From NCBI GenBank assembly GCA_964407285.1, contig CAYOVG010000003.1, forward strand, positions 40-64,039: a stretch of 64,000 bases of DNA, given 5' to 3'. A program made the position numbers and the translations under genes. The notes under the pieces are model-generated. The model had not been told where the DNA came from and searched no databases. It saw only the letters and a program-made list of their open reading frames with translations. This document shows, piece by piece, positions 3,200 through 56,907 of the stretch; within the stretch, counting starts at the first letter, position 1; every line of letters begins with the position of its first letter. The DNA is from an uncultured Syntrophobacteraceae bacterium. GTDB taxonomy: Bacteria; Desulfobacterota; Syntrophobacteria; Syntrophobacterales; Syntrophobacteraceae.

Positions 3200-4153
3200 T
3201 CAAACGGCTTTCGGACTGAGGGCGAAATTGCCCACAAAGGACGGAAGGGGATTGTGGTGCTGGAACACGGGTGGAATGTACGGCATCGGGACGACGAGGC
3301 TGCAGAAGTCCTTCCGGTTCATGAGGGTCTCGAGGAACTGATTGTGCAGCTTGTGTCCGGCCTTGTGGACCTCGAAACGGCCCAGCAACGGCTTGCCCGC
3401 CAAGGCTACATCGCCCATGAAATCAAGAACTTTGTGTCGCACGCATTCGTCGGGGTAGCGGAATCCTTCATCATTGAGCAGCCCCCTGTCATCGAATACG
3501 ATGGCATTTTCGAGGGAGCCGCCACGGGCAAGCCCCATGCGCTGGAGTTGCTGCACGTCCTTGAGAAAGCCGAAAGTCCTCGCCTTGGCGATATCGCGCG
3601 CAAAGGCGGACTTCTCGAAGCACCACGAGAACTCCTGCCTGCCTATCAGCGGATGGGGAAATTCGATGGTGTAGCAGACTTCGAACTGGTCGGAAGGGAT
3701 CGCCTTGATGAAAGCGTCGCCTTCGCGTACGGTAAAGGGCCTTTCCACCTTGAAATAGTGGCGGTACGCCCCCTGCTTTTTCAGCCCCGACTTCTGGATG
3801 AGCTTGAAATACCCGGCGGCGCTCCCGTCGAGAATAGGGACTTCGGGACCCGTAAGCTCCACCAGCACATTATCGACCCCCATTCCAACGAATGCCGCCA
3901 TCAGGTGTTCGATGGTGGAAACGGTCGCCCCGTTCGAACCGATAGTGGTCGCCAGGGATGTGTCGGTTACTTCATCGTAGCGGGCGACAACGGTGGGACG
4001 CTCCGGCAGATCCAGCCTCCGGAACCTTACACCGAAGTTCTCGGGTGCGGGCTTCAACCTCAAGGCTATGTCCAGCCCCGAATGAAGCCCGGTCCCCTCA
4101 CACCGCACCTCTTTCTTCAGCGTATGCTGCTTATGAAAAAATATATGCCCCAA
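3200..4153 (-). CDS. lpxC: UDP-3-O-acyl-N-acetylglucosamine deacetylase
   Basis: 317-aa ORF with LpxC hallmarks: TGLHSG, VSTIEHLMAA, VPILDGSA, HKxLDxxGD (VRHKVLDFMGDVAL) and HKAGHKLHNQF. Confidence 0.9.
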   Translation of the reverse strand: MGHIFFHKQHTLKKEVRCEGTGLHSGLDIALRLKPAPENFGVRFRRLDLPERPTVVARYDEVTDTSLATTIGSNGATVSTIEHLMAAFVGMGVDNVLVELTGPEVPILDGSAAGYFKLIQKSGLKKQGAYRHYFKVERPFTVREGDAFIKAIPSDQFEVCYTIEFPHPLIGRQEFSWCFEKSAFARDIAKARTFGFLKDVQQLQRMGLARGGSLENAIVFDDRGLLNDEGFRYPDECVRHKVLDFMGDVALAGKPLLGRFEVHKAGHKLHNQFLETLMNRKDFCSLVVPMPYIPPVFQHHNPLPSFVGNFALSPKAV

Positions 4154-44997: not shown

Positions 44998-45018
44998 GGA
45001 AGGGCGCGCGCCCTCTTC
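44998..45018 (+). terminator. GC-rich hairpin directly after pstB (possible terminator; no clear U-tract)
   Basis: ggaagggcgcgcgccctcttc forms a stem gaagggcgc/gcgccct(c)ttc with one bulge. It lies 12 nt after the pstB stop. Confidence 0.3.
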
Positions 45019-45019
45019 G

Positions 45020-45095
45020 ACAGGATTGACAGGCTCTGAATGTGCATTCGATCGATTCCCAATCCTGTTGATCCCGTACATCCTGTCAATCCTGT
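45020..45095. repeat. Perfect 14-bp inverted repeat (acaggattgacagg / cctgtcaatcctgt) around a 48-nt spacer
   Basis: Left arm 45020-45033, right arm 45082-45095, exact reverse complements. The spacer holds smaller palindromes (gaatgtgcattc, tcgatcga). The aatcctgt motif recurs at 61395-61430. Confidence 0.7.
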
Positions 45096-45203
45096 CTTAA
45101 GACCGGTACCCTTCAGATAATTCCATATGTTATAATAGATATGGACAGGAATCACGAATGGTGTTTTCGAGGCAAACGAATAATGCCCGGGGAGATGTGA
45201 GAC

Positions 45204-45614
45204 ATGAAAGCCGTAACAGTTTTATCCGCGGTGTTGGTTTTTGTTGTTCTTTGTGCGTCACCGGCCGTTGCCGGGCGAGGATGGGACCCGTCGCATCGAG
45301 GGGGCTATGTCGATTCCGGCGATGAGTTTGAAAGCGGTGTGGGTGAAGTCGCTCCGGGCGACCCGGATGCCTATCCGGTAGACGATTATCCGGGTGTCGC
45401 GCAGGATTACCCGGATGTAGTGCGAAACTATCCCGTTGTCGCCGGAGATTCCCTGAATACGACGGGTCCCATGCAGTTCACCACGGGCAATAGCCCGGCC
45501 ACAACGGGACCCATGCAATTCACGACGGGACCCTTGCGGTCGACCACCACTGACCGGCCCGCCGGCGGATTTCACCATGGAAGACGGTCCTTCGGCGAAC
45601 ACTTCAAACGTTAG
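45204..45614 (+). CDS. Secreted protein with internal short repeats
   Basis: Signal peptide MKAVTVLSAVLVFVVLCASPAVA; repeated TTGPMQFTTG units and DYP/NYP repeats. Confidence 0.5.
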   Translation: MKAVTVLSAVLVFVVLCASPAVAGRGWDPSHRGGYVDSGDEFESGVGEVAPGDPDAYPVDDYPGVAQDYPDVVRNYPVVAGDSLNTTGPMQFTTGNSPATTGPMQFTTGPLRSTTTDRPAGGFHHGRRSFGEHFKR

Positions 45615-46036
45615 GTTCTGCTGCGCACGGCGTGCACAATCCCGGTAAACCGTGCCGATAATCGGATGCTGCCGGATCTCTCCAATTTTTCGACCGCGGC
45701 CGGCGCACATTGCCGGCCGCTCAGCGGTATCTTCATTTTCTCGTGATTCATGCTTATAATATCCGGATAATACCCAAGGACGTGAAAGCCGATGCCCCCA
45801 ATTTGCGAGGAGCCGTAGAGCGTAGCCTTTTCAATGCAGGAGGAGCGCGGATGCCCTGGAAGGAATGTCGTTGACTTGCATTGTGCGGAATGCGACATGG
45901 GATTGCTGTTCGTGGTCGAAGCGTCCGATTCGAAGACCGGTCGGACCCTGAGGGCATTTGCCCAAAATGCACCCGATGGCAGGGAGAGACCGGCGGTGCG
46001 GAGGGGTTCAATACCGAATATGGAGGACGAACGAAA

Positions 46037-47200
46037 ATGTCGGAACGAGTCGGAGTGCCCTGTCTGAAGAGTGGAGAGGCAAATTCAGGCCATCCCGAGG
46101 GGACGCCCAATCCGGCTGATAGCTCCATCGATAGCCTGGCTTTCTGTAAATTCGTAATCAATAGCGTGCCGATCGGGATCATTTCCATGGATTCCGACTT
46201 CAGGATTACCGAATTCAACCATTGGGCCGGGAAAGTGACGGGCTATACCCCGGAACAAGCGATAGGCCATAGGTGTTGTGACATTTTGCAGAGTGAAATG
46301 TGCGAAGGTTCCTGTCCTTTGAAAACAGTTCTGAACCAGGCAAAAGCGACTGTATCCGGCAGGACGACCATACGCAACAGGGAGGGAATGCGCGTCCCCG
46401 TTCAGTTCGACGCTGCTGCTCTCTTTGGCGCCGAAGGCAGGCTCATCGGAGGAGTCGAAGCCTTCATGGATATAACGAAACTGATTGCCCTGGAGCGGGA
46501 GAGAGCGGACTTCATCGCGATGCTCGCTCATGACATGAGGTCTTCATTAACGGGGATCCACGGACTCGGGCTCAGGCTGTTGAGAAAGCTCGACAACCTG
46601 GATAAGGGACAGGAGAGGCAGTACATAGAGATCATCACCAGGGAGGCCGCAAAGCTGGAGTCATTGATCGATGACTTTCTCGATTATTCCCGGATTGAAG
46701 CGGGCAGGCTCAAGCTCAATCTCAGAGCGACTTCCCTCGATAAAGAACTCGAAGAGATTTTTGACACATACAAGCTCAAGGCGGCCCAGAGAGGCATCGT
46801 GCTCGATCTGCAGATAGAAGATATTCTGCCGGTTGTAGAGGCTGATACCAACAGGCTGCGCAGGGTCTTTACGAATCTCTTGGATAATGCCGTCAAGTTT
46901 TCGAGAGAGGAAGGGGTTGTCACGATCACCGCCCAGGAGAAGGATCGGGAGGTCGTGGTGATGATAACCGATGAGGGCATCGGAATAGATCCCGAGGATC
47001 TCCCCCATATTTTCGACGTCTTCCATAGGGGAAAGACGACGGGCGGGGTAGAGGGACACGGACTGGGACTGGCTACTGTCAAGGCCATTGTGGAAGGGCA
47101 TGGCGGGCGTATCGTGGTCACCAGTCAGCCCAATAAGGGCTCGACGTTTACCATATTTCTTCCCAAACGGGAAGAGGGGCCGCCCCGCTTCGATTCCTGA
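46037..47200 (+). CDS. Cytoplasmic PAS-domain sensor histidine kinase (orphan; no response regulator adjacent)
   Basis: GGAGGA lies 9 nt upstream of ATG 46037. It has a PAS (PIGIISMDSDFRITEFNHWAGKVTGYTPEQAIG) with a Cys cluster, the H-box AMLAHDMRSSLTG, the N-box NLLDNAVKF, and the G-boxes DEGIGI / GHGLGLATV. Confidence 0.85.
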   Translation: MSERVGVPCLKSGEANSGHPEGTPNPADSSIDSLAFCKFVINSVPIGIISMDSDFRITEFNHWAGKVTGYTPEQAIGHRCCDILQSEMCEGSCPLKTVLNQAKATVSGRTTIRNREGMRVPVQFDAAALFGAEGRLIGGVEAFMDITKLIALERERADFIAMLAHDMRSSLTGIHGLGLRLLRKLDNLDKGQERQYIEIITREAAKLESLIDDFLDYSRIEAGRLKLNLRATSLDKELEEIFDTYKLKAAQRGIVLDLQIEDILPVVEADTNRLRRVFTNLLDNAVKFSREEGVVTITAQEKDREVVVMITDEGIGIDPEDLPHIFDVFHRGKTTGGVEGHGLGLATVKAIVEGHGGRIVVTSQPNKGSTFTIFLPKREEGPPRFDS

Positions 47201-47266
47201 GATGCTCGCAGCACATGTGCTTGCGGAAGACGTAGGGGCGCCGCGATGCTTTCTTCCTTGTATACG

Positions 47267-47539
47267 CTATTCCAAATCCGGAAGCTCCTCCCGAGGAATG
47301 AGGAGCCTTATCGTGCGAGGCTGATTCGGCACTCTTGAAATAAAGCCCTTTTGCTCGAGCTGCAGCACCATGCTGTGAACAGATGGAGGCGTGGTCTTGA
47401 AATATCTCTGCATGTCCGCTTCCGCCGGTGGAATACCGTTCAATTTGGTGTAGTAGTGGATGAACGCCAGGTATTGGCCCTGTTTGCGCGTGTATGGAGA
47501 TCTTTGCTTTCGGTTCGCGTCGTGAATATCCGTCTTCAT
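47267..47539 (-). CDS. Small winged-helix DNA-binding protein resembling the LexA N-terminal domain; last gene of the RAMP operon
   Basis: 90 aa. YTRKQGQYLAFIHYYTKLNGIPPAEADMQRYFKTTPPSVHSMVLQLEQKGFISR parallels the LexA DNA-binding domain pattern (LT.RQ..vL.FI..y....G.pPt..EIa..lg..S.s.V..HL.aLe.KGyI.R). It starts 15 nt after the Cas6-like stop. Confidence 0.65.
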   Translation of the reverse strand: MKTDIHDANRKQRSPYTRKQGQYLAFIHYYTKLNGIPPAEADMQRYFKTTPPSVHSMVLQLEQKGFISRVPNQPRTIRLLIPREELPDLE

Positions 47540-47554
47540 AATCAGCCCTTATAA

Positions 47555-48619
47555 TCAGCTCAGCGAAAACGTTCCGCATCCGAGGTGGGTGTACCTCCCG
47601 ATGTGGAGGATGGATGCGAGTTCCAGCCACGGGATGATCTGCGGAGCAATGGGGGCGAAGACCCCTTTGCCCGCCCATCGGCCCGGAGTGCCGGTCTGAT
47701 TGGCCTCCATGTCCTTGAAGAGCAACGGGGTCCGGACGGCCAGGTCCATGGCCTCCCGGAGGGACGCTCTGCCCTCCTCGTCGAGAATGTTCCACAGGGC
47801 GTCGGCCGCCTTTTTGCCTCGCGCAAGGAAGACCAGGCGCCTCTCCACGGCTTCCAGGATGGCTTCCAGCGAGAAATCGGGGATTTCCCGGCCATCATAT
47901 CCTCGCTGCCTATGCAGAGGCGGGCCGGAATCCGCGTCCGCCTGTTCTCCCGAAATACCGGGTTGGGCCTCGAATTCAAAGGACGTGAGCCACGACAGCC
48001 GCTGCGGAGGGGCCGCCGAACCGGCCTCGAACGCCAACCCCCGCGCCCACTGCGATGTATCGGCCCGGTAACCCAGGTCCAACCGGCCGTCGCTCACCAC
48101 CGGCTCCCAGCATGGCCCTCGCGCCGCATAGACGGCATGAACGTCGAATCGGCCCCATATCCCGCCCGAGCGGCTCCACCGGGAATCCGTCGTGAAGCTC
48201 GCTTCCTCCATGGCGGGCAGCAGGGTTTCGAGGAAGAATCCATGGTCCGCCGCGTCTCCCATCACCTTGAGTTCCCAGAAGACCAGTTCTCCGAACCCGT
48301 AGGTCCGCTTTCCGGGATAGGGAAAGAGCACGACGTCGGCGGGCCACGATACGTCGGGAAATTCCCGCTTCATGCGCGGCGATCCCTTTTTTCCCTTCTT
48401 CGAATGATCGGGATTGGGGTCATCGAAATACGCGTCCCAGGGGGCGAGGGCCTTCTTCCAGCGTCCGGACTCCCTGGACGGGAGGCGGTCCGCGATGATC
48501 GAGCCGAGGACCCTCGACAGTTCGACCGAGAAGTTCTCCGGCAAGAACACGTAGGCGCCGTTTATCCTCCACACGATGAGGTAGCGGATGAGCCTAATCT
48601 TCCTGAATGAGGCGTGCAT
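47555..48619 (-). CDS. Cas6-like RAMP protein (resembles the Cas6 family formerly called DUF2276)
   Basis: 354 aa. The C-terminal glycine-rich loop LELASILHIGRYTHLGCGTFSLS is the Cas6/RAMP signature (HiGk.tsfGlG). The N-terminal half has FGELVFWELKVMGDAADHGFFLETLLPAMEEA and GGIWGRFDVHAV, matching the first ferredoxin-like fold of that family. It overlaps the upstream gene by 26 nt. Confidence 0.7.
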   Translation of the reverse strand: MHASFRKIRLIRYLIVWRINGAYVFLPENFSVELSRVLGSIIADRLPSRESGRWKKALAPWDAYFDDPNPDHSKKGKKGSPRMKREFPDVSWPADVVLFPYPGKRTYGFGELVFWELKVMGDAADHGFFLETLLPAMEEASFTTDSRWSRSGGIWGRFDVHAVYAARGPCWEPVVSDGRLDLGYRADTSQWARGLAFEAGSAAPPQRLSWLTSFEFEAQPGISGEQADADSGPPLHRQRGYDGREIPDFSLEAILEAVERRLVFLARGKKAADALWNILDEEGRASLREAMDLAVRTPLLFKDMEANQTGTPGRWAGKGVFAPIAPQIIPWLELASILHIGRYTHLGCGTFSLS

Positions 48620-49478
48620 AATCGAGAAGCTCGTGAAATAGTTTGATCCGGTTCTTGGGCCATTCCCGCACCTTCCAGGCCGTCAGCATGTCCCTGGTCC
48701 GCTGCTCGAGCCTTCCCAGAAAGCGGCCCCAGTAGAACTGGGTCTGCTTCTTATCCTTCAGGTTGAGCAGGTCGAACAGCTCCTGCTGCTCGTCGGGATG
48801 GAGCAGAGCCCGGAAGATCTCCGCCGTCTCCAGGAGACCGAGGAAGTCGGACACCTCGAAGCTGAGCATTCCCTTCTGATCGCGGGTACGGGGGTCCAGC
48901 AACTGGTACGGACTCGAAAAAAAACGTACGTGCATGCTCCCCATCGGGATGTACAGGTCCCGATGGACGGCCAGGGTGAGCACATCGCCCATGCACGTTC
49001 TCGTGCCGGCCCCCATGGTCGGGAAGATCTGCAAAATCCCCCGCAACTCCAGCCCGTAGTAGACGATGAGGTCCTGCAGCCACACTCTCACTTCCCGGCG
49101 GTGCATCATGACGAGAAAATGGTTGGCGTCGTGAATATAGACACCCTGGAGCCGCCCGCCCCGGTCCCCGCCGCCCCACTGGAGCACCTCCTCGGGCAAC
49201 TGGGTGACGAACCCCCAGATGAGCGCCGCGTTGCGGGAGATATGGGAGAGATTGGCCGTCCGCTGAAGAATCTGCCCGCACTCCCTGCAGTACAGCTCCC
49301 CCTCCCCGGTGCGGGGATAGATCCAGCACCGCGCGCACGGCCCCAGGGTAGCGGAATGGGGCGCTCCGATGTCGCCGGCGGCGGCCGGAAAATCGGGGTT
49401 TTCCGACAGGCGCCTCATTGTGGCCAGGAGTTCCGTACCCGTCCGGCAGCGGCGTAGCCAATCAAATCTGCTGAGCAT
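48594..49478 (-). CDS. Zinc-ribbon protein of unknown function, middle gene of the RAMP operon
   Basis: 294 aa. CARCWIYPRTGEGELYCRECG (CxxC-x12-CxxC) sits at aa 48-68. The rest is mixed alpha/beta-looking with no motif I recognise. It is translationally coupled on both sides (17-nt and 26-nt overlaps). Confidence 0.65.
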   Translation of the reverse strand: MLSRFDWLRRCRTGTELLATMRRLSENPDFPAAAGDIGAPHSATLGPCARCWIYPRTGEGELYCRECGQILQRTANLSHISRNAALIWGFVTQLPEEVLQWGGGDRGGRLQGVYIHDANHFLVMMHRREVRVWLQDLIVYYGLELRGILQIFPTMGAGTRTCMGDVLTLAVHRDLYIPMGSMHVRFFSSPYQLLDPRTRDQKGMLSFEVSDFLGLLETAEIFRALLHPDEQQELFDLLNLKDKKQTQFYWGRFLGRLEQRTRDMLTAWKVREWPKNRIKLFHELLDYARLIQED

Positions 49479-52400
49479 CCAACGCCTTCCGCAGTTCCTG
49501 GTAGTGTTGTATCACTTTTGGATCGATCCATTCCGCCGGATTCAGGGGCATCCGCCCCCGGGCGTCGTCGGACTTCCCGTCCCCGTTGCCGCCCGCATAC
49601 CGGCTCTCCCAGTCCGTGAGAAAACTTTCCGGAAGCAGGCTCAGCCGCAGGCTCCCGAACCCGAGGTAGCGACCCTTGCCCATCTTGTGCGCCAGCTCCG
49701 GTTCCAGCACCGTACACCACAAGAGCCTCTGCAGTTCGTCCTTCTCGAGGTTCCAGAACCGGATCGAGAATCGGCACCGGGAGCCGGGTAGGATCGCCTT
49801 GACGTAATCGGCTTTGGGGGTATCCGGGTTGAAGCCGTCCAGTTTCTCCACGCAAGGGGCAAGCGGGGCGTGCGGGAAGAGCCTCCACTTCCCGGCGATG
49901 CGCAGCATCTCGGCGGGTTGTTTCGAAGCCTCCTTCCACCGGCCGTCGATGTAGCGCCACGCCCCGTAGGGGTACGGCACTTTGAACCATGCGGCGTCAA
50001 CCTCCTCGAACGGGGCGAAATCGAAGGAAATCCTTCCCATGATCGCCTGGTTCGGACCGTTTCCCACCCAGCCGAACAGGCTGTCCGCGGGGGTGAGCCG
50101 GCCGATGTCCGTGCTGGGTTTGCCGGAGTCGGTTGCGATGGTGTAGATGTGCCGGATCATTCCCTTGATGCTCTTGGCGGGCAGAGCGTAGAGCCTGGAG
50201 GGACCCCGCAGGGCCGCTTCCGGCGGAGCCATGGCGAAGTGGTCCCATCCGTTGATGCCCCCTGCCGACGCATCATCGAGAATGTGCGCCTGCGACGGCT
50301 CTCCGCTTGCCTTGACGCTGACCAGCGTCAGGACTCGGCCCTCGACCCGCAGCAACCCGCAGTAGCCCCCGAAAGCCTTGTGGGATATGAAACCCTGTCC
50401 GGTCCTCGGCGGATTTCGCGCGCCTCTCTTGCCTTCCGGAGCGATGGGGGTCCGGAGAAACGCATCCCGGGCGGCCTCCCCCTCGACGCTGAAACCGTTC
50501 CATATGCCGTCGCGCGTGTGGACCGGGCTTGCGAAAATCCTCCTGCCGACCGCATCCGCGTCCGCGGGCGCGCAGGTCAACCACCGAATTGAGTCGATCC
50601 GGCTCTTGACCCAGCCGAAGCCGCATGTCTTTTCTCCGCCGAGAGGGATGTCCCCCTTGCGGAAGTCGTCGAGCAGGTGCGCCAGGATGGAAAACGCTTC
50701 CATGTCCTTTTCGCCCAGGTCCTGCATGTCGAGCCGCAGGTTGAACGAGAGGTCCTTGCCGAAGGCGAAGAGGTAGTCCGCTTTGGCTTCCTCGATGGGA
50801 GCGCCCGTCGCGGGGTCCATTCTCACCCCGTCCATGGCGCAGGCCGATTGAGGCGGGATCGTGGAACCTGATAGATATGCGTCGGAGAAGAAAACCATCC
50901 CCTGCCGTCCCTGCTCGCCGAAGAGACGGTCCAAAACGAACGCCGTTTTCGACGATTCCCCCCACAGGGTCTTGAGCAGTTGGGACGCGCGCTTCCTGAA
51001 CGCGCCTTTAATGGTGCTTCCCGGTATGTACACCTCCCACTTTCCCCGCCCCTCCCTGGAGGGCGCCCAGGAAAGCATCCTCATGAATACGGTGTCGAAA
51101 GGCTTGCCGTACTTCCTGGAAATCTCGCGGTTGGCTACCCCGCCGGCGCGGAAGTCGGTGTTGTACGGCTGGGACAGCTCCTCGCGGGTATGGTCGCGAT
51201 ATCCCGAAAGGAGCGCTATGATGTTCTTGTCGTTCACGATGCTTTTGTTCAGGTTCCTGCTGTTGAGCATGTGGCGGTACTGCACCCGCCGGTGGGATTC
51301 GATGAATTCCCGCCAGGTCGAGGAACGTACGCCCTCGGGTGTCAAGTCCGGGTTGAGCCATTGCCGCTCCTGCATCTTTCCCTTGAGGAGCATGTTCTTG
51401 ATGCGCAGGTGCTCTTCCCGGATGGCGATCTCCTCATCGATCCAGCTATCGCTTCGGATCAGCTTGATCTGCCTGTCCACCTGCTGGTAGAGGTTCGGAA
51501 GGACCCTCGCGCACTCGCGCGACAGAAGGTCCGTGAAGGCGGATTCGTCCTGGACGGAGCCCGCCAGCCGGTCCGCCACGTCCTTTTCGAACCCCATCGG
51601 ACCGGCGACCTTCGCCCAGGTTTCCCTGTCGAACTGCTTGCCCTTCTTTCGCTCGTGCACCACGACGTCGAGCACGCGTTTGGCCATGTTGGCTTTCCCG
51701 CCGAGAGCCTCCTTGACGGCCGCCTCGACGGCCTCCTTGTTCGGAAACGGGCGGTCCGTGAGCGGCTTTACCTGGTCCAGCACCTTCTGGGACAGAGGGA
51801 ACTTGCCCTTCCCGAGTTTCCCCACGGCGGCGGACGGGAGCATCCAGGACACCTGTTCCATGCTGGACTGCTCCATCAGCCAGGCGGCCAGTACTCTCGG
51901 AAGGAATTCGGCCAGCTTCTTCTTCCAGTTGTCCGGGCTGAGGATCGGTCCCCCTATGGTGGATTCCAGCCGCTTGCGGATCGGCTGCGGGATGCTCCTC
52001 ATGGCTTCCAGGAGTTGACGGCCTTCGATGGCGGCGAAGGCCGGTTCGTTCGGGTCGATTTTTCCCCACGGCCACCCCACGAGGACGGGGTTTTCCAGGT
52101 TGAAGGAGAGGTCGATGGCGAGGTGGTTCGCGCGAGGCGAGACGGAAGGCGCCGTATCCCGAGGCTTGAAGGGGAGTTCGATTTCCAGGCGGCAACGTCC
52201 CAATCCCTTGCTCTTCCCGGCCCCGAACCAGAAACGGCCCTCCTTCAGTTCCTGCAATGCAAAGTAGAGCCTGGCCTCGTTTTCGTCCTTCTTGAGGAGA
52301 GGATCGCTCACCGTCATGGAAAAATCGAAGACCGAATTCCGGAAAAGGGTTTCCATCTTGTAGTTCGCGTTGGCTTCCGCCGCCCAGCGGTCCTCGTTGA

Positions 52401-52719
52401 GCTTGATGCCCATGCGGATGTCGAAGAGGTGGTCCCGCGAGTAGCTCTTCTCCTCGAGGCTGCACTGGACCTTCGCGACCAGCCCTTCCGGCATGGGGGA
52501 ACCGTAGAGCCGCAGCCACAACTGGTTGAGCAATCCGATGTTCTTTCCGGTTCGCGACTTGCCGATGAACGCGTCCATGAGGGATTCGGCGGTCCCCCCT
52601 ATTTCTCCGGCGAGGGACACGAGGCGCTGCGTTCCGTCTCCGTCTCTCGTGAAAAGGGTCTTCCGCGCATTTCCCCGGTAGATCGGGGATTCGGCCAGGA
52701 GCTTACCTTTGAGAATCAT
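49462..52719 (-). CDS. Fused multi-RAMP protein: three Cas7-like modules with a large insertion (gRAMP/Cas7-11-like architecture, 1085 aa)
   Basis: AAGGAGG lies 6 nt upstream of ATG 52719. Module 1 (aa 1-185): ESPIYRGNARKTLFTRDGDG, IRMGIKLNEDRWAAEANANYKMETLF, G-loop FGAGKSKGLGRCRL. Module 2 is split: AIDLSFNLENPVLVG (aa ~200-216), then WEVYIPGSTIKGAFRKR (561-577), LDRLFGEQG, GVRMDPATGAP, G-loop IPLGGEKTCGFGWV. Module 3 (aa ~785-1030): RVLTLVSVKASGE, YALPAKSIKGMIRH, ADSLFGWVG, GRISFDFA, RFSIRFWNLEKDELQRLLW, G-loop HKMGKGRYLGFGSLRL. Confidence 0.8.
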   Translation of the reverse strand: MILKGKLLAESPIYRGNARKTLFTRDGDGTQRLVSLAGEIGGTAESLMDAFIGKSRTGKNIGLLNQLWLRLYGSPMPEGLVAKVQCSLEEKSYSRDHLFDIRMGIKLNEDRWAAEANANYKMETLFRNSVFDFSMTVSDPLLKKDENEARLYFALQELKEGRFWFGAGKSKGLGRCRLEIELPFKPRDTAPSVSPRANHLAIDLSFNLENPVLVGWPWGKIDPNEPAFAAIEGRQLLEAMRSIPQPIRKRLESTIGGPILSPDNWKKKLAEFLPRVLAAWLMEQSSMEQVSWMLPSAAVGKLGKGKFPLSQKVLDQVKPLTDRPFPNKEAVEAAVKEALGGKANMAKRVLDVVVHERKKGKQFDRETWAKVAGPMGFEKDVADRLAGSVQDESAFTDLLSRECARVLPNLYQQVDRQIKLIRSDSWIDEEIAIREEHLRIKNMLLKGKMQERQWLNPDLTPEGVRSSTWREFIESHRRVQYRHMLNSRNLNKSIVNDKNIIALLSGYRDHTREELSQPYNTDFRAGGVANREISRKYGKPFDTVFMRMLSWAPSREGRGKWEVYIPGSTIKGAFRKRASQLLKTLWGESSKTAFVLDRLFGEQGRQGMVFFSDAYLSGSTIPPQSACAMDGVRMDPATGAPIEEAKADYLFAFGKDLSFNLRLDMQDLGEKDMEAFSILAHLLDDFRKGDIPLGGEKTCGFGWVKSRIDSIRWLTCAPADADAVGRRIFASPVHTRDGIWNGFSVEGEAARDAFLRTPIAPEGKRGARNPPRTGQGFISHKAFGGYCGLLRVEGRVLTLVSVKASGEPSQAHILDDASAGGINGWDHFAMAPPEAALRGPSRLYALPAKSIKGMIRHIYTIATDSGKPSTDIGRLTPADSLFGWVGNGPNQAIMGRISFDFAPFEEVDAAWFKVPYPYGAWRYIDGRWKEASKQPAEMLRIAGKWRLFPHAPLAPCVEKLDGFNPDTPKADYVKAILPGSRCRFSIRFWNLEKDELQRLLWCTVLEPELAHKMGKGRYLGFGSLRLSLLPESFLTDWESRYAGGNGDGKSDDARGRMPLNPAEWIDPKVIQHYQELRKALDAQQI

Positions 52720-52927
52720 TCACGCCTCCTTGTCTCTTGCTCCGCGGGAAATCGTGTTCACTGGTCATCCATTCATCCTTTCTCGCCTCGACCGGGATAT
52801 CGAGTAGTGGATAGTGGATCGCCGGCTTCATAAATACGGCCGCCATGCCCGCCATAGGGTTAAATATGTATGTTTATCACTATCGTATCGTGGCTGCAAG
52901 TTGCTTCGCTCAATTATAATCCGATAA

Positions 52928-54115
52928 TCAGGCTTCCAACTCCTGGTTTCCGGCCTCCGGCCTCCGTCTCATGGCGAGACTCAGTAACCCGGCCGCGAAC
53001 GGAAGCCAGACCAGCATCCGGATGGCGAATTCGATGCCGAACCGCTCCGCCGCCATGCCGACCAATCCCACTCCGAGTCCGCCGATCCCTATGCCGAATC
53101 CGAGCATCAGTCCGGCGGCCATGGCGGCGTTTTCCGCGATTACTTCCTGGGCGGCCACGATGGTTACCGAAAACGACGCCAGGAGCGCGGCTCCGGCGAG
53201 GGCGAGCAGGATGTAGCTCGGGAGCCCGTCCGTTTGGAGGAACAGGTAGAAAAGGGGAGTGGCCGCCATCAGCGACCCCGCTATGACCGTCTTCCTCCCG
53301 AGCAGGTCCGACAGGTGCCCTCCGACCAGCCCTCCGATCGCTCCCGAGAAGAGCATCAGGAACACCAGCCTGCTCCCGGTGAGAAGCGAAATGTCCCTGT
53401 GCTGGAGGTATAGCGGCAGGAATGCGACCATGCTGAAGAACGCGAGGGACCGGAAGGCGACGACCGCCACGACCTTCGAGAGTTCGAACCGGACAGGGCG
53501 AAGCGCGGGCCAGAGGGGCGGGGGGGACGCTTTTTTCCGTGAAGGGGTCTCGGGGACCGTGAACCGGAGAACGACGGAAACTACCACGCCGGGCAGAACG
53601 AATAAAGGGGTCCACTCGAGCCCCCATGTCTCGATGAACGGGACAGCCAGGAGCGGCGTAAGCGCCCATCCGACATTTCCGGAAGTGATGAATACGGCCT
53701 GGAAGAAGCCTTTGCGGTTGCCCCCGAGGGATGAAATCATCGCGGAAGCCTGGGGATGGAAGGCGGCGGTTCCGAATCCGGCCAGGGTCACGAGCGCCAC
53801 GAGCAGCGGATAGCTCTTCAGAACTCCGATGAGGCTGAGCAGGACGGCCATCCAGAGTGTTCCGGCATACACCAGCCAGCGCTGGTCTTTCTGGTCCACC
53901 AGGTACCCGGAAACCGGCTGAAAGAGCGAGGACGTGACCGTAAAGGCGGAAACGAGGAACGCGCCCTTGCTGATTCCCAGTCCCGCCGCGACCATGAACG
54001 GCAGGAGCGTTTGAATGTAGTTCATGTACCAGTCGTTCAAGCAGTGGGCGACGCATATGGAGGCTATGCTCACTTTCCGGGAAACCTGGGATGCTTCTGC
54101 AACTTCTACGCTCAT
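52928..54115 (-). CDS. MFS transporter
   Basis: 395 aa with about 12 hydrophobic helices and MFS-like loop motifs (GYLVDQKDQRW after TM2; GHLSDLLGRK in the second half). Confidence 0.85.
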   Translation of the reverse strand: MSVEVAEASQVSRKVSIASICVAHCLNDWYMNYIQTLLPFMVAAGLGISKGAFLVSAFTVTSSLFQPVSGYLVDQKDQRWLVYAGTLWMAVLLSLIGVLKSYPLLVALVTLAGFGTAAFHPQASAMISSLGGNRKGFFQAVFITSGNVGWALTPLLAVPFIETWGLEWTPLFVLPGVVVSVVLRFTVPETPSRKKASPPPLWPALRPVRFELSKVVAVVAFRSLAFFSMVAFLPLYLQHRDISLLTGSRLVFLMLFSGAIGGLVGGHLSDLLGRKTVIAGSLMAATPLFYLFLQTDGLPSYILLALAGAALLASFSVTIVAAQEVIAENAAMAAGLMLGFGIGIGGLGVGLVGMAAERFGIEFAIRMLVWLPFAAGLLSLAMRRRPEAGNQELEA

Positions 54116-54180
54116 GGTGATTTCTTTCTTCGGCTTGGTTCATAAGCCATGTATTTAAGGTAATGCTTGAAAGGACCCAT

Positions 54181-54273
54181 CGTCATTTCCGCGCCGGCGG
54201 GAATACGGGATTTTCGAGGTTTCCCGGACCCCCGCTCCCCGCCTGCGCGGGGACAAGCTTCGCGGGGGCGACG
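54181..54273. repeat. Copy C of the structured intergenic repeat family
   Basis: cgtcatttccgcgccggcgggaatacgggattttcgaggtttcccggacccccgctccccgcctgcgcggggacaagcttcgcgggggcgacg aligns with the copies at 9753 and 59181. Confidence 0.6.
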
Positions 54274-54436
54274 GCTTAAGTGCCGCCCTATTTTGAACCC
54301 TGCCCTTTCTTCCCTCATTCATTGTGGGGTTTTGTCCGGTGACGGGACGGACGGCAAAGGGCTTTTGAACGGCTCTTCCTCCGACTCCCGGCTTCCATAC
54401 CGCGTTCGGATCATTCAATCTGTATATCGCTCATAT

Positions 54437-54456
54437 CTTATTGAACGTTCAATAAG
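54437..54456. promoter_or_regulatory. Perfect 20-bp palindrome, candidate operator
   Basis: cttattgaacgttcaataag is its own reverse complement. It lies in the 614-nt divergent intergenic region between the MFS gene (start 54115, -) and the lipoprotein ORF (54730, +). Confidence 0.3.
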
Positions 54457-54729
54457 AAGTCAAATGCGGGGAAAAAGGTGGAGTGCGGCGCGTTCGCGGG
54501 GACTGCGGTCAAATGCCGGCGGACCGCCGTCGGATGCTGTTCTTCGGGGTACTGTTAATCCAGCAGGATACGGCGCCGGGCAGTATGGGGCCGGAGGCGC
54601 CCACGTGGAGGTCCCAAATCTGATTTCCCTTGAATCCCCGGACTTTACAGGATAGATCCCGGTAGATACCTTTGTCGGGATGGGCCGTCGTTACGGCGTT
54701 GACTTACCTGAACTTGCCTGGATCTCGTT

Positions 54730-55338
54730 ATGACTCGCTATTTCGTTCTCGTAATATGTTGGGCTGCAATTGCGATGGGAATGGCGTCCTGCGCGACGGC
54801 GCACAGGGCGACGACCGCCGGGAATCCCGCTGGAGCGGTCAACCCGGAGGCGGCGCGGGCGGAAGCGGCGGGACCCGCAACCGCGTCTCCCGGTACGACC
54901 GTGTCCTCCGGCAACTCCGTGTCCCCCGTGTCCCCCGCGACACCGGCGACACCGGCGACACCCGGCGCGCCCGGAACACCGGGGACCTCCGAAGCGTCGG
55001 GGGCGTCCGGGTCCCACAAGGCTTCCAGGTCGCCCGGTTCCGGCATGCCCGGTTCGTCGTCCGGCATGTTCCTGCGGGTTTTGCGCAATACTCTCGACAT
55101 CCTGAGAGATATCGCATGGATGATCAAATCGGCCATGCACTTGTGGACCGGTTCCTACTTCGCCGATTCGCTCGACGCCGCCGCGTGCGGCGCCTGCAAG
55201 AGCAAGACTCCCCCTCCAGCCCTGGTTTCCGCTTCACGTTCAAGCCTGAACCCCGTCCCCCGGATCTGTCTCCCGGATGCGTCCGCGACCGCGGCCGGAC
55301 GAAAACCGCTAAAGTTTGACGGCGGGAGTCCGATATGA
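54730..55338 (+). CDS. Putative lipoprotein with a Pro/Thr/Ala/Gly-rich low-complexity linker
   Basis: Signal peptide plus a lipobox-like AMGMASC. The third codon position is strongly G/C in this frame. A competing minus-strand ORF (54738-55136) covers the same low-complexity DNA, so the strand call is not secure. Confidence 0.4.
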   Translation: MTRYFVLVICWAAIAMGMASCATAHRATTAGNPAGAVNPEAARAEAAGPATASPGTTVSSGNSVSPVSPATPATPATPGAPGTPGTSEASGASGSHKASRSPGSGMPGSSSGMFLRVLRNTLDILRDIAWMIKSAMHLWTGSYFADSLDAAACGACKSKTPPPALVSASRSSLNPVPRICLPDASATAAGRKPLKFDGGSPI

Positions 55339-55482
55339 AAGACATGCGGGAGATGTGGCGCCGGATGGTCGAATGGCCTGTACCTTCAGGTTTTGTGGCG
55401 AAGGGACTCCGGGAGCGCGCCGGGACGACGCGTGGACATCCGCTCCGGACTTACCCTTTGGGAATGCAAGGGAGCACCAGTC

Positions 55483-56907
55483 ATGGGCAGACCGACTCTT
55501 ACCGATGTCAATCCGTTCTATCTCGGCAATGTTATGGATCTGGCCAGGGAGCACGAAGTCGTCACGAGCGACGACATATACAGCGCCCAGGGGATGAAGC
55601 TCGTCGCCAGGGGGAGAAGAGTTGACGAAAGCCTGTACGAGCGGCTGATCAACTTCAGTTTGCGCACTCCGCTGGAATCCTGCCTGGCTGTGGGCGACGG
55701 CGTGAGGGTCGAGACGCTCATGGAGGAAGCCGAAGCATTGCTGGAAGAGGTCGGACCGCTGTCGGCGCTCATGCGGACCACGAATTCCACCCGCAAAGCC
55801 ATGTCCGTGCTCAAAGAGACCCGCCTGGACCAGGTCGGCGCTCTGCTCATCACCATGGAAAAGGGTATGGGAACTCTGCCCCACAGCGTCCTCGTCTCTC
55901 TTTTCTGCCTGGCCGTCGGGATCGGGTTGAACCTCGGCGAGGATAACCTCCGCGTGCTCGTCATGGCCGGAATGCTGCACGACGCAGGGGAGCTTTACAT
56001 CGACCGGGAGTATCTGAAACCGAACCGCCGGTTGCAGCCCCGGGAATGGAAGCACGTCGCCGTGCATCCCCACATCGGCGAACTCGTCATCCGTGAAGTG
56101 GCGGGGTATCCGGAGCGCGTGGCCGCGGCGGTCGGCGAGCACCATGAAAGGCCGAACGGATTCGGCTATCCGCGCCGGATAACCGGTGACAGGATGAGCG
56201 TGCCGGGGAAGATACTGATGGCCGGTGAGGCCCTGGGCAGTCTCTTCACGAGGGACCGCTGGTCTGTGCGGCGCGTGAGCCTGGCCGTCAGCTTCATTCC
56301 CGGAGAATACCCGCCGGAGATAGTCTCTCTTATCGCGAGCATTCCTGTATCCGACGAATCCGCAGATTCGGGGAAATCCGGAGATTCCGTGGATTCGGGG
56401 GAATTGGATGCTCCCGGTTCCGGACGCAAGCCTCGGGGGGCGTCACCGGGCGGGGCGGCGCATGCCGATGCGCCGCTGGACGGCGACCAAGTTGCCTGGA
56501 TGAAACGCATCGACAATACGATAATCGGAGCGCTCGACGGGGTGGAGCAAGCGCTGGCGCGGGAAAAGGTCCCCTCCGCCCGGAGCGCTTTCCTTCAGCA
56601 GGTGCGGAAGCGGCTGCTCGTTCTTCAGGCCGCCATGCGGGACACCGTGTTCTCCCCTCATGAGGGGCTGTATGCGGATACCGACTGTGAAACGGAAACC
56701 ATCTCCCTGGAGATCCGGACGGTCATCCATGAAATAGAGTGGAGGCTGCGCGAAGTCTCGCGCCACATGGCGCTGAACTCCATGGCCGGAAAGGGGGATA
56801 CCGGCGGTTCCGACGATTCCGGCCACTACTTCGACTGGATGGCCGACTGCCTGGATCGAACTCCCGCAAACGCCCCCCGGCGCGCCGGATGCCGCCATGC
56901 GGCGTAG
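55483..56907 (+). CDS. HD-GYP domain protein (probable c-di-GMP phosphodiesterase) with a Ser/Asp/Gly-rich C-terminal extension
   Basis: Likely start is ATG 55483 (MGRPTLTD). Motifs: HD motif AGMLHDAGELY and HHERPNGFGYPRR (HHExxDGxGYP). Confidence 0.85.
   Translation: MGRPTLTDVNPFYLGNVMDLAREHEVVTSDDIYSAQGMKLVARGRRVDESLYERLINFSLRTPLESCLAVGDGVRVETLMEEAEALLEEVGPLSALMRTTNSTRKAMSVLKETRLDQVGALLITMEKGMGTLPHSVLVSLFCLAVGIGLNLGEDNLRVLVMAGMLHDAGELYIDREYLKPNRRLQPREWKHVAVHPHIGELVIREVAGYPERVAAAVGEHHERPNGFGYPRRITGDRMSVPGKILMAGEALGSLFTRDRWSVRRVSLAVSFIPGEYPPEIVSLIASIPVSDESADSGKSGDSVDSGELDAPGSGRKPRGASPGGAAHADAPLDGDQVAWMKRIDNTIIGALDGVEQALAREKVPSARSAFLQQVRKRLLVLQAAMRDTVFSPHEGLYADTDCETETISLEIRTVIHEIEWRLREVSRHMALNSMAGKGDTGGSDDSGHYFDWMADCLDRTPANAPRRAGCRHAA

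Follow-up and report, generated by a model that had tools for sequence, protein, structure and literature searches.

The gene at 47555-48619 of the window, by which we mean the whole 64,000-nt stretch analysed here from an uncultured Syntrophobacteraceae bacterium (GCA_964407285.1, contig CAYOVG010000003.1), appears from its profile matches and structural model to encode a genuine Cas6-type protein of CRISPR-Cas (clustered regularly interspaced short palindromic repeats and associated proteins) subtype III-I, a predicted CRISPR RNA-cutting enzyme. By sequence comparison, the operon to which it belongs is the effector module of that rare subtype. Subtype III-I was defined in 2025 by Makarova et al. 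from more than 160 genomes, mostly of Thermodesulfobacteriota and Chloroflexota, with Desulfonema magnum as exemplar (PMC12669027); the family, its name and the operon are already catalogued (Makarova 2025, PMC12669027; NF049959, 'CRISPR_3_Cas6i'). No CRISPR array accompanies the operon, and this array-free setting is the norm for the subtype, not a local oddity. We consider it probable that the protein, Cas6i, is the dedicated endoribonuclease for precursor CRISPR RNA (pre-crRNA) of an array-less III-I cassette, and that it acts on unlinked arrays. The locus adds one intact, divergent III-I cassette, in a genome with four candidate repeat families, and confirms once more, over the 160 loci compared, that III-I is never linked to an array.

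Coordinates are given as positions of the 64-kb window; the whole contig measures 64.65 kb. The three genes lie on the minus strand in the order cas7-11i, cas10i, cas6i, with overlaps of 17 nt (cas7-11i/cas10i) and 26 nt (cas10i/cas6i). Each product was recognised by a curated NCBIfam profile: Cas6i scored 275 bits against NF049959 (cut-off 160, E 3.1e-82; residues 5-216 on model positions 4-207 of 207), Cas10i 414 bits against NF049958 (cut-off 175), and Cas7-11i 1774 bits against NF049957 (cut-off 800; residues 1-1085 on model positions 1-1076). In this genome NF049959 was matched by cas6i alone. That model has 207 positions, and the C-terminal lobe (C-lobe) of Cas6i with its glycine-rich loop (G-loop) falls outside it. 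Pfam gave only a sub-threshold Cas6 match (PF10040, residues 249-350, E 0.003) and PADLOC weak Cas6 matches (residues 310-353); because these matches are weak and limited to the C-lobe, an earlier note, made by a reader without tools, saw merely a 'Cas6-like' loop. The Cas6 assignment proposed there is upheld by the curated profile, by the weak C-lobe matches and by the fold. The same note had described an operon with a fusion of repeat-associated mysterious proteins (RAMP), and the neighbours are indeed Cas7-11i, which matches the RAMP family PF03787, and a shrunken Cas10i, but the catalogued CRISPR subtype had been missed. Neither adaptation genes nor an array are present in the cassette, and neither a Cas5 gene nor a Cas5 family match turned up there.

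Homologues of Cas6i formed 413 clusters at E <= 1e-3, the best non-self match having an E-value of 8e-117; the best 120 of these clusters are 317-367 amino acids (aa) long and cover 96-100% of the protein. No sequence in a 5.8-billion-sequence collection is more than 56% identical to it. Cas6i is a fairly divergent new member of the known III-I Cas6 family, and the locus reveals no novel type of system. When 32 homologues from Chloroflexota and Desulfobacterota, each 46-55% identical to the query, were aligned, 51 columns proved invariant, among them R12, Y13, K104, H126, R261, H345 and those of the G-loop. This loop, which the earlier note had singled out, is HIGRYTHLGCGTF, residues 339-351; in its sequence I-G341-R-Y-T-H345-L-G347-C-G349-T-F seven positions (G341, H345, G347, C348, G349, T350 and F351) are invariant in the 32 homologues. 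It fits the glycine-rich pattern of Cas6 (GxGxxxxxGxG-like) ahead of the last strand of the C-lobe, and is paired with the G-loop of a PF10040 Cas6 of this genome when the two proteins are aligned (hhalign E 1.8e-4). Catalysis by Cas6i is plausible, with Y13, K104, H126, H345, R12 and R261 as candidate residues on account of their invariance.

The AlphaFold2 model built from the homologue alignment (mean predicted local distance difference test score, pLDDT, 78; predicted TM-score, pTM, 0.78) consists of two alpha/beta lobes (residues ~8-210 and 247-354), in agreement with the two-lobe layout suggested before, and places the G-loop between helix 329-338 and strand 351-353, a position as in Cas6. 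The lobes are the two tandem ferredoxin/RRM-like (RNA recognition motif) domains that characterise the Cas6 superfamily, and all 31 Foldseek matches of the model at E <= 1e-3 are Cas6 proteins. Profile and structure comparison with the Cas6 families, which the earlier note had proposed as a check, thus both returned Cas6. Sequence profiles found no chain for Cas6i among the solved structures of the PDB, and superoxide dismutase matches in the search of solved structures were rejected as spurious. A low-complexity insert between the lobes had also been pointed out; it is present (residues 218-245), but it is no special feature, as the linker is hypervariable in every homologue. Alignment columns ~241-283 differ in length and composition across all 32 sequences, and residues 220-242 are disordered in the model (pLDDT <50). 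Judged by alignment and model, the insert is an ordinary variable disordered linker, not special to the Cas6i described here. Among the sequencing runs holding the Cas6i stretch, one DNA run (an activated sludge metagenome) and no RNA run is listed.

The absence of a repeat substrate from the operon, its leader and the surrounding 64 kb, noted from the bare sequence, was confirmed by every search. No CRISPR-like array was found in the window with Tandem Repeats Finder (TRF) and a repeat search, nor in the 64.65-kb contig with a k-mer scan; no direct or inverted repeats of note surround the operon (45000-55500), and solo copies of the four repeat types of the genome are lacking on the contig with 8-9 substitutions allowed. 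Rfam yielded one tRNA only in the 64-kb window and no match in the leader, and the 208-nt leader folds less stably than shuffled controls (z +1.40). The leader and the upstream flank of the window are unlike the upstream regions of 106 related loci, and the downstream flank has no match among the flanks of 154 related loci.

We compared 160 related loci, 80 from genomes and 80 from metagenomes, of which 136 carry all three genes and 110 a complete cas7-11i. Flanking sequence amounted to 1.18 Mb in total; it extends 2 kb or more to either side of the operon in 62 loci and 5 kb or more in 31. An adjacent CRISPR array was found in none of the 160 loci, while the same scan recovered every array in the positive controls. 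On four large contigs or closed chromosomes, including that of Desulfonema magnum, no array lies within ~50 kb of the cassette. The missing array, which had been taken as a peculiarity of the locus, is shared by all 160 relatives compared. The genes cas10i and cas6i are adjacent or overlapping in nearly all of them. A conserved accessory gene was not found, no neighbour cluster occurring in more than 19 of the 160 loci; the clusters that were found are syntenic genes of one Anaerolineae clade, not cas genes, and where other loci resemble one another in their flanks, this reflects synteny between closely related Anaerolineae.

Apparent arrays in four loci (L056, L159, L098, L108) proved to be coding repeats or plain tandem repeats. 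In L054, two 35-nt copies lie 56 nt apart just 3' of cas6i; with a 21-nt gap and two copies only, they do not form an array. Upstream of cas7-11i in the D. magnum locus (L108, 4679-4890), at a distance of 300-500 nt, a 90-nt tandem repeat is present in about 2.5 copies. As these match one another over their full length, a repeat-spacer array was ruled out.

Arrays are present elsewhere in the genome. The source is an activated-sludge metagenome-assembled genome (MAG; our G000) of 7.4 Mb in 710 contigs, and at least four repeat families were found on its other contigs, almost all at contig ends (Table 1). With these, a distant array became the best supported of the options that the earlier note had offered for the substrate. 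The repeat GTATTTCCGGGGTTTTACGCCCCGGCCTCATTGAAAC scored 34.7 bits against Rfam CRISPR-DR16, the threshold being 35. The ORFs (open reading frames) that adjoin the assembled ends of four DR16-like arrays have no cas family match; one of them encodes a malic enzyme and another a LanM lanthipeptide synthetase. Several dispersed arrays are therefore without a cas gene on at least one side. On contig C518 (3577 nt), k-mers of DR16-like (~2981) and ATTGAGAC-type (3389-3486) repeats occur together. In the same MAG, cas1 occurs at five loci; there are also three other PF10040 Cas6 genes, which are distantly related, and at least three more RAMP clusters. In the five other III-I genomes examined, arrays lie near cas1 or cas6 and far from the cassette, and Cas1 is present in 28 of 36 III-I genomes.

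Processing of unlinked arrays by Cas6i, the explanation that we favour, builds on what each of the three proteins was identified as, on the fold and G-loop of Cas6i, on the family-wide absence of a linked array and on the arrays elsewhere in this genome. Cas6i would bind the repeats of arrays transcribed elsewhere, the candidates here being the 36-37-nt families ending ATTGAAAC or ATTGAGAC. Its cut would leave a short repeat-derived 5' tag, and the resulting CRISPR RNA (crRNA) would be passed to Cas7-11i-Cas10i, which, once loaded, may cleave complementary RNA. Catalysis, repeat choice and hand-over are steps that we infer from the analysis. The type III-E effector Cas7-11e has an N-terminal Cas7 domain that is missing from Cas7-11i (PMC12669027), and in type III-E it is the Cas7.1 domain that processes pre-crRNA (PMC13294483). 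Because Cas7-11i is without this crRNA-processing domain, a separate Cas6 would be needed, which fits the near-universal presence of cas6i as the third gene. The Cas6 of III-D2, from the lineage that gave rise to III-I, cuts a 37-nt repeat in vitro and leaves an 8-nt 5' tag (PMC13294483). As a predicted RNA-guided RNase that is compact and made of a single protein, Cas7-11i might be attractive as a tool, and the crRNA that it takes would depend on what Cas6i cuts.

Several points weigh against this explanation. The Cas6 of P. furiosus carries a catalytic histidine on helix alpha1. That of T. thermophilus also has a histidine there (H37; mutant entry 4c97), whereas helix alpha1 (30-45) of the N-terminal lobe (N-lobe) of Cas6i contains none. 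The canonical alpha1 catalytic histidine could not be mapped, the comparison with the PF10040 Cas6 of the same genome aligning only the C-lobe, and the N-lobe gave no sequence alignment with any solved or PF10040 Cas6. Eight of the 36 III-I genomes, these being incomplete MAGs, showed no Cas1. No repeat family is common to the III-I genomes, and DR16-like repeats were found in one of the 36 (G019, on another contig), a weak negative with 136 candidates scored per genome. The array reading of the closed genomes G028 and G032 covered the regions near cas1, cas6 and the cassette. There, the closed 6.1-Mb Anaerolineae chromosome of G028 (G028:C1) showed only an I-E-type array, of 74 repeats (~501630-506150) beside an I-E-type cas1; its RAMP-family matches are to Cas7-11i alone, and no array lies within 20 kb of the 120-aa Cas6 fragment at 2405810.

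A more radical version, which we regard as rather doubtful, would make III-I an obligate guide borrower: a mobile three-gene cassette that never owns an array and brings a private Cas6, which either processes anew the repeats of any co-resident CRISPR system or has become a Cas5-like tag-binding partner of the shrunken Cas10i. Repeat recognition by Cas6i would in that case have to be unusually relaxed or fast-evolving, and this would explain both the lack of a shared III-I repeat family and the solely I-E-type array of G028.

It is also conceivable, and in our estimate unlikely, that Cas6i is mainly a structural RNA-binding subunit, which stays on the crRNA tag, docks Cas10i and stands in for Cas5, and which may or may not cut. 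Such a role would be compatible with the processing of unlinked arrays if Cas6i does both. It would account for the undetected Cas5 and for the histidine-free canonical alpha1 position, and it agrees with the translational coupling of cas10i and cas6i, by the overlap in this operon and by adjacency or overlap in nearly all others; one locus (L104) keeps this pair without cas7-11i. However, a published AlphaFold3 model of Cas7-11i, Cas10i and crRNA reached an interface predicted TM-score (ipTM) of 0.75 without Cas6 (PMC12669027), intact solo cas6i genes stand amid housekeeping genes in three loci (L131, L165, L076), and Cas6i appears to fit Cas6 much better than Cas5.

The missing array might alternatively mean that the substrate is a single-copy, non-CRISPR structured RNA near the operon, serving as a fixed guide or regulatory RNA, as the earlier note had considered. 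What speaks for this is a negative fact only, the lack of a linked array throughout the 160 loci. The leader is without excess structure, the only Rfam match of the window is a tRNA, its flanks match none of the 106 upstream and 154 downstream related flanks, no notable inverted or direct repeats lie around the operon, and what flank similarity other loci show is due to synteny; we hold such an RNA to be very improbable. About equally improbable is that the missing array reflects decay and that the cassette is an inactive relic. Linked arrays and adaptation genes are indeed lacking, and a few loci are partial, with a solo cas6i or only cas10i-cas6i, but all three ORFs are intact and align with their models from one end to the other, 51 columns stay invariant among homologues of Chloroflexota and Desulfobacterota that are 46-55% identical to the query, and all three genes are together in 136 of the 160 loci.

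The III-I locus of D. magnum (L108) has the same gene order as the present one and likewise no array nearby, and Cas6i here is 41% identical to its counterpart there. An array in the same locus is usual but not obligatory for Cas6, many type III loci relying on a Cas6 that acts in trans. Stand-alone type I and type III cas6 genes usually adjoin their own array, whereas cas6i does so in none of the 160 loci. Compared with such stand-alone proteins (S. thermophilus 6fjw; S. solfataricus 4ill/4ilm; T. thermophilus 4c9d/4c8y; P. furiosus 3i4h/3pkm), Cas6i is ~100 residues longer, has two disordered insertions (residues 66-94 and 218-245), and has an N-lobe that is not alignable by sequence. The Cas6 domain of fusions of Cas6 with reverse transcriptase (RT) and Cas1 (PDB 6dd5 from Marinomonas mediterranea; 7kft/7kfu) shares 10-11% sequence identity with Cas6i, which, unlike it, stands alone, unfused to RT or Cas1. 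The array-less III-G and III-F modules are likewise effector cassettes without array or adaptation genes, and trans use of crRNA has been proposed for III-G (PMC12669027); III-I differs from both in always bringing its own Cas6 and in having a single fused protein as effector.

Table 1. Features of the III-I operon (window coordinates) and repeat families on other contigs of the same genome.
Feature	Position	Strand	Description
cas6i	47555..48619	-	354 aa; Cas6 of subtype III-I; NF049959 match
cas10i	48594..49478	-	294 aa; shrunken Cas10 with zinc ribbon; NF049958, E 3e-124, full length
cas7-11i	49462..52719	-	1085 aa; fused Cas7x3-Cas11 effector; NF049957 and PF03787 RAMP matches
Leader	52720..52927	-	208 nt, 5' of cas7-11i; without repeat or stable structure
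LexA-type winged helix-turn-helix (wHTH) gene	47267..47539	-	90 aa; PF01726, E 1.4e-9
Glycine-rich loop HIGRYTHLGCGTF	47567..47605	-	cas6i residues 339-351; C-lobe, between last helix and last strand
Hypervariable inter-lobe linker	47885..47968	-	cas6i residues 218-245; AQPGISGEQ...DGRE
Repeat family 1	seven contig ends (C66, C138, C219, C221, C320, C427, C532)		37 nt, GTATTTCCGGGGTTTTACGCCCCGGCCTCATTGAAAC, ending ATTGAAAC; at least 43 copies
Repeat family 2	five contigs		37 nt, ending ATTGAGAC
Repeat family 3			36 nt, ending ATTGCAG; adjoins Cas4-Cas1 fusion
Repeat family 4			29 nt, I-E type

The wHTH gene begins 15 nt past cas6i and encodes a LexA-type DNA-binding domain without a protease domain. 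It had no tblastn match in 80 related III-I loci, all of which differ in this from the present locus, and it probably represents a local regulator or else an independent small gene, outside the conserved cassette.

In one Anaerolineae clade, whose flanks are 87-94% identical in DNA, the gene immediately upstream of cas7-11i is that of RtcA, an RNA 3'-terminal phosphate cyclase (PF01137, 5e-80), as seen at L050:1458-2516 and in 13 other loci (e.g. L041, L142, L158 and L159). Cas6 products end in cyclic phosphates, which is the sole reason why this neighbour is worth mentioning. Given the identity of the flanking DNA, its position next to cas7-11i looks like synteny and not like a functional link. 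Another neighbour cluster presumably resembles ribosomal protein L9.

Intact solo cas6i genes, with products of 331-349 aa, were observed at L131:4542-5579, L032:1357-2394, L165:5967-6962 and L076:2896-3945. In L131, L165 and L076 neither cas7-11i nor cas10i is on the fragment, and the neighbours are housekeeping genes (ribulose-phosphate epimerase, xanthine dehydrogenase, DegV, a short-chain dehydrogenase/reductase (SDR) and a phosphatase). L131 and L032 have in common an overlapping ORF of 150 aa past cas6i, to which no family was assigned. The cas10i-cas6i pair without cas7-11i lies at L104:5967-9071, with ~7 kb of sequence available upstream, and is preceded by a gene for a 301-aa CxxCxxCC-domain protein (PF03692).
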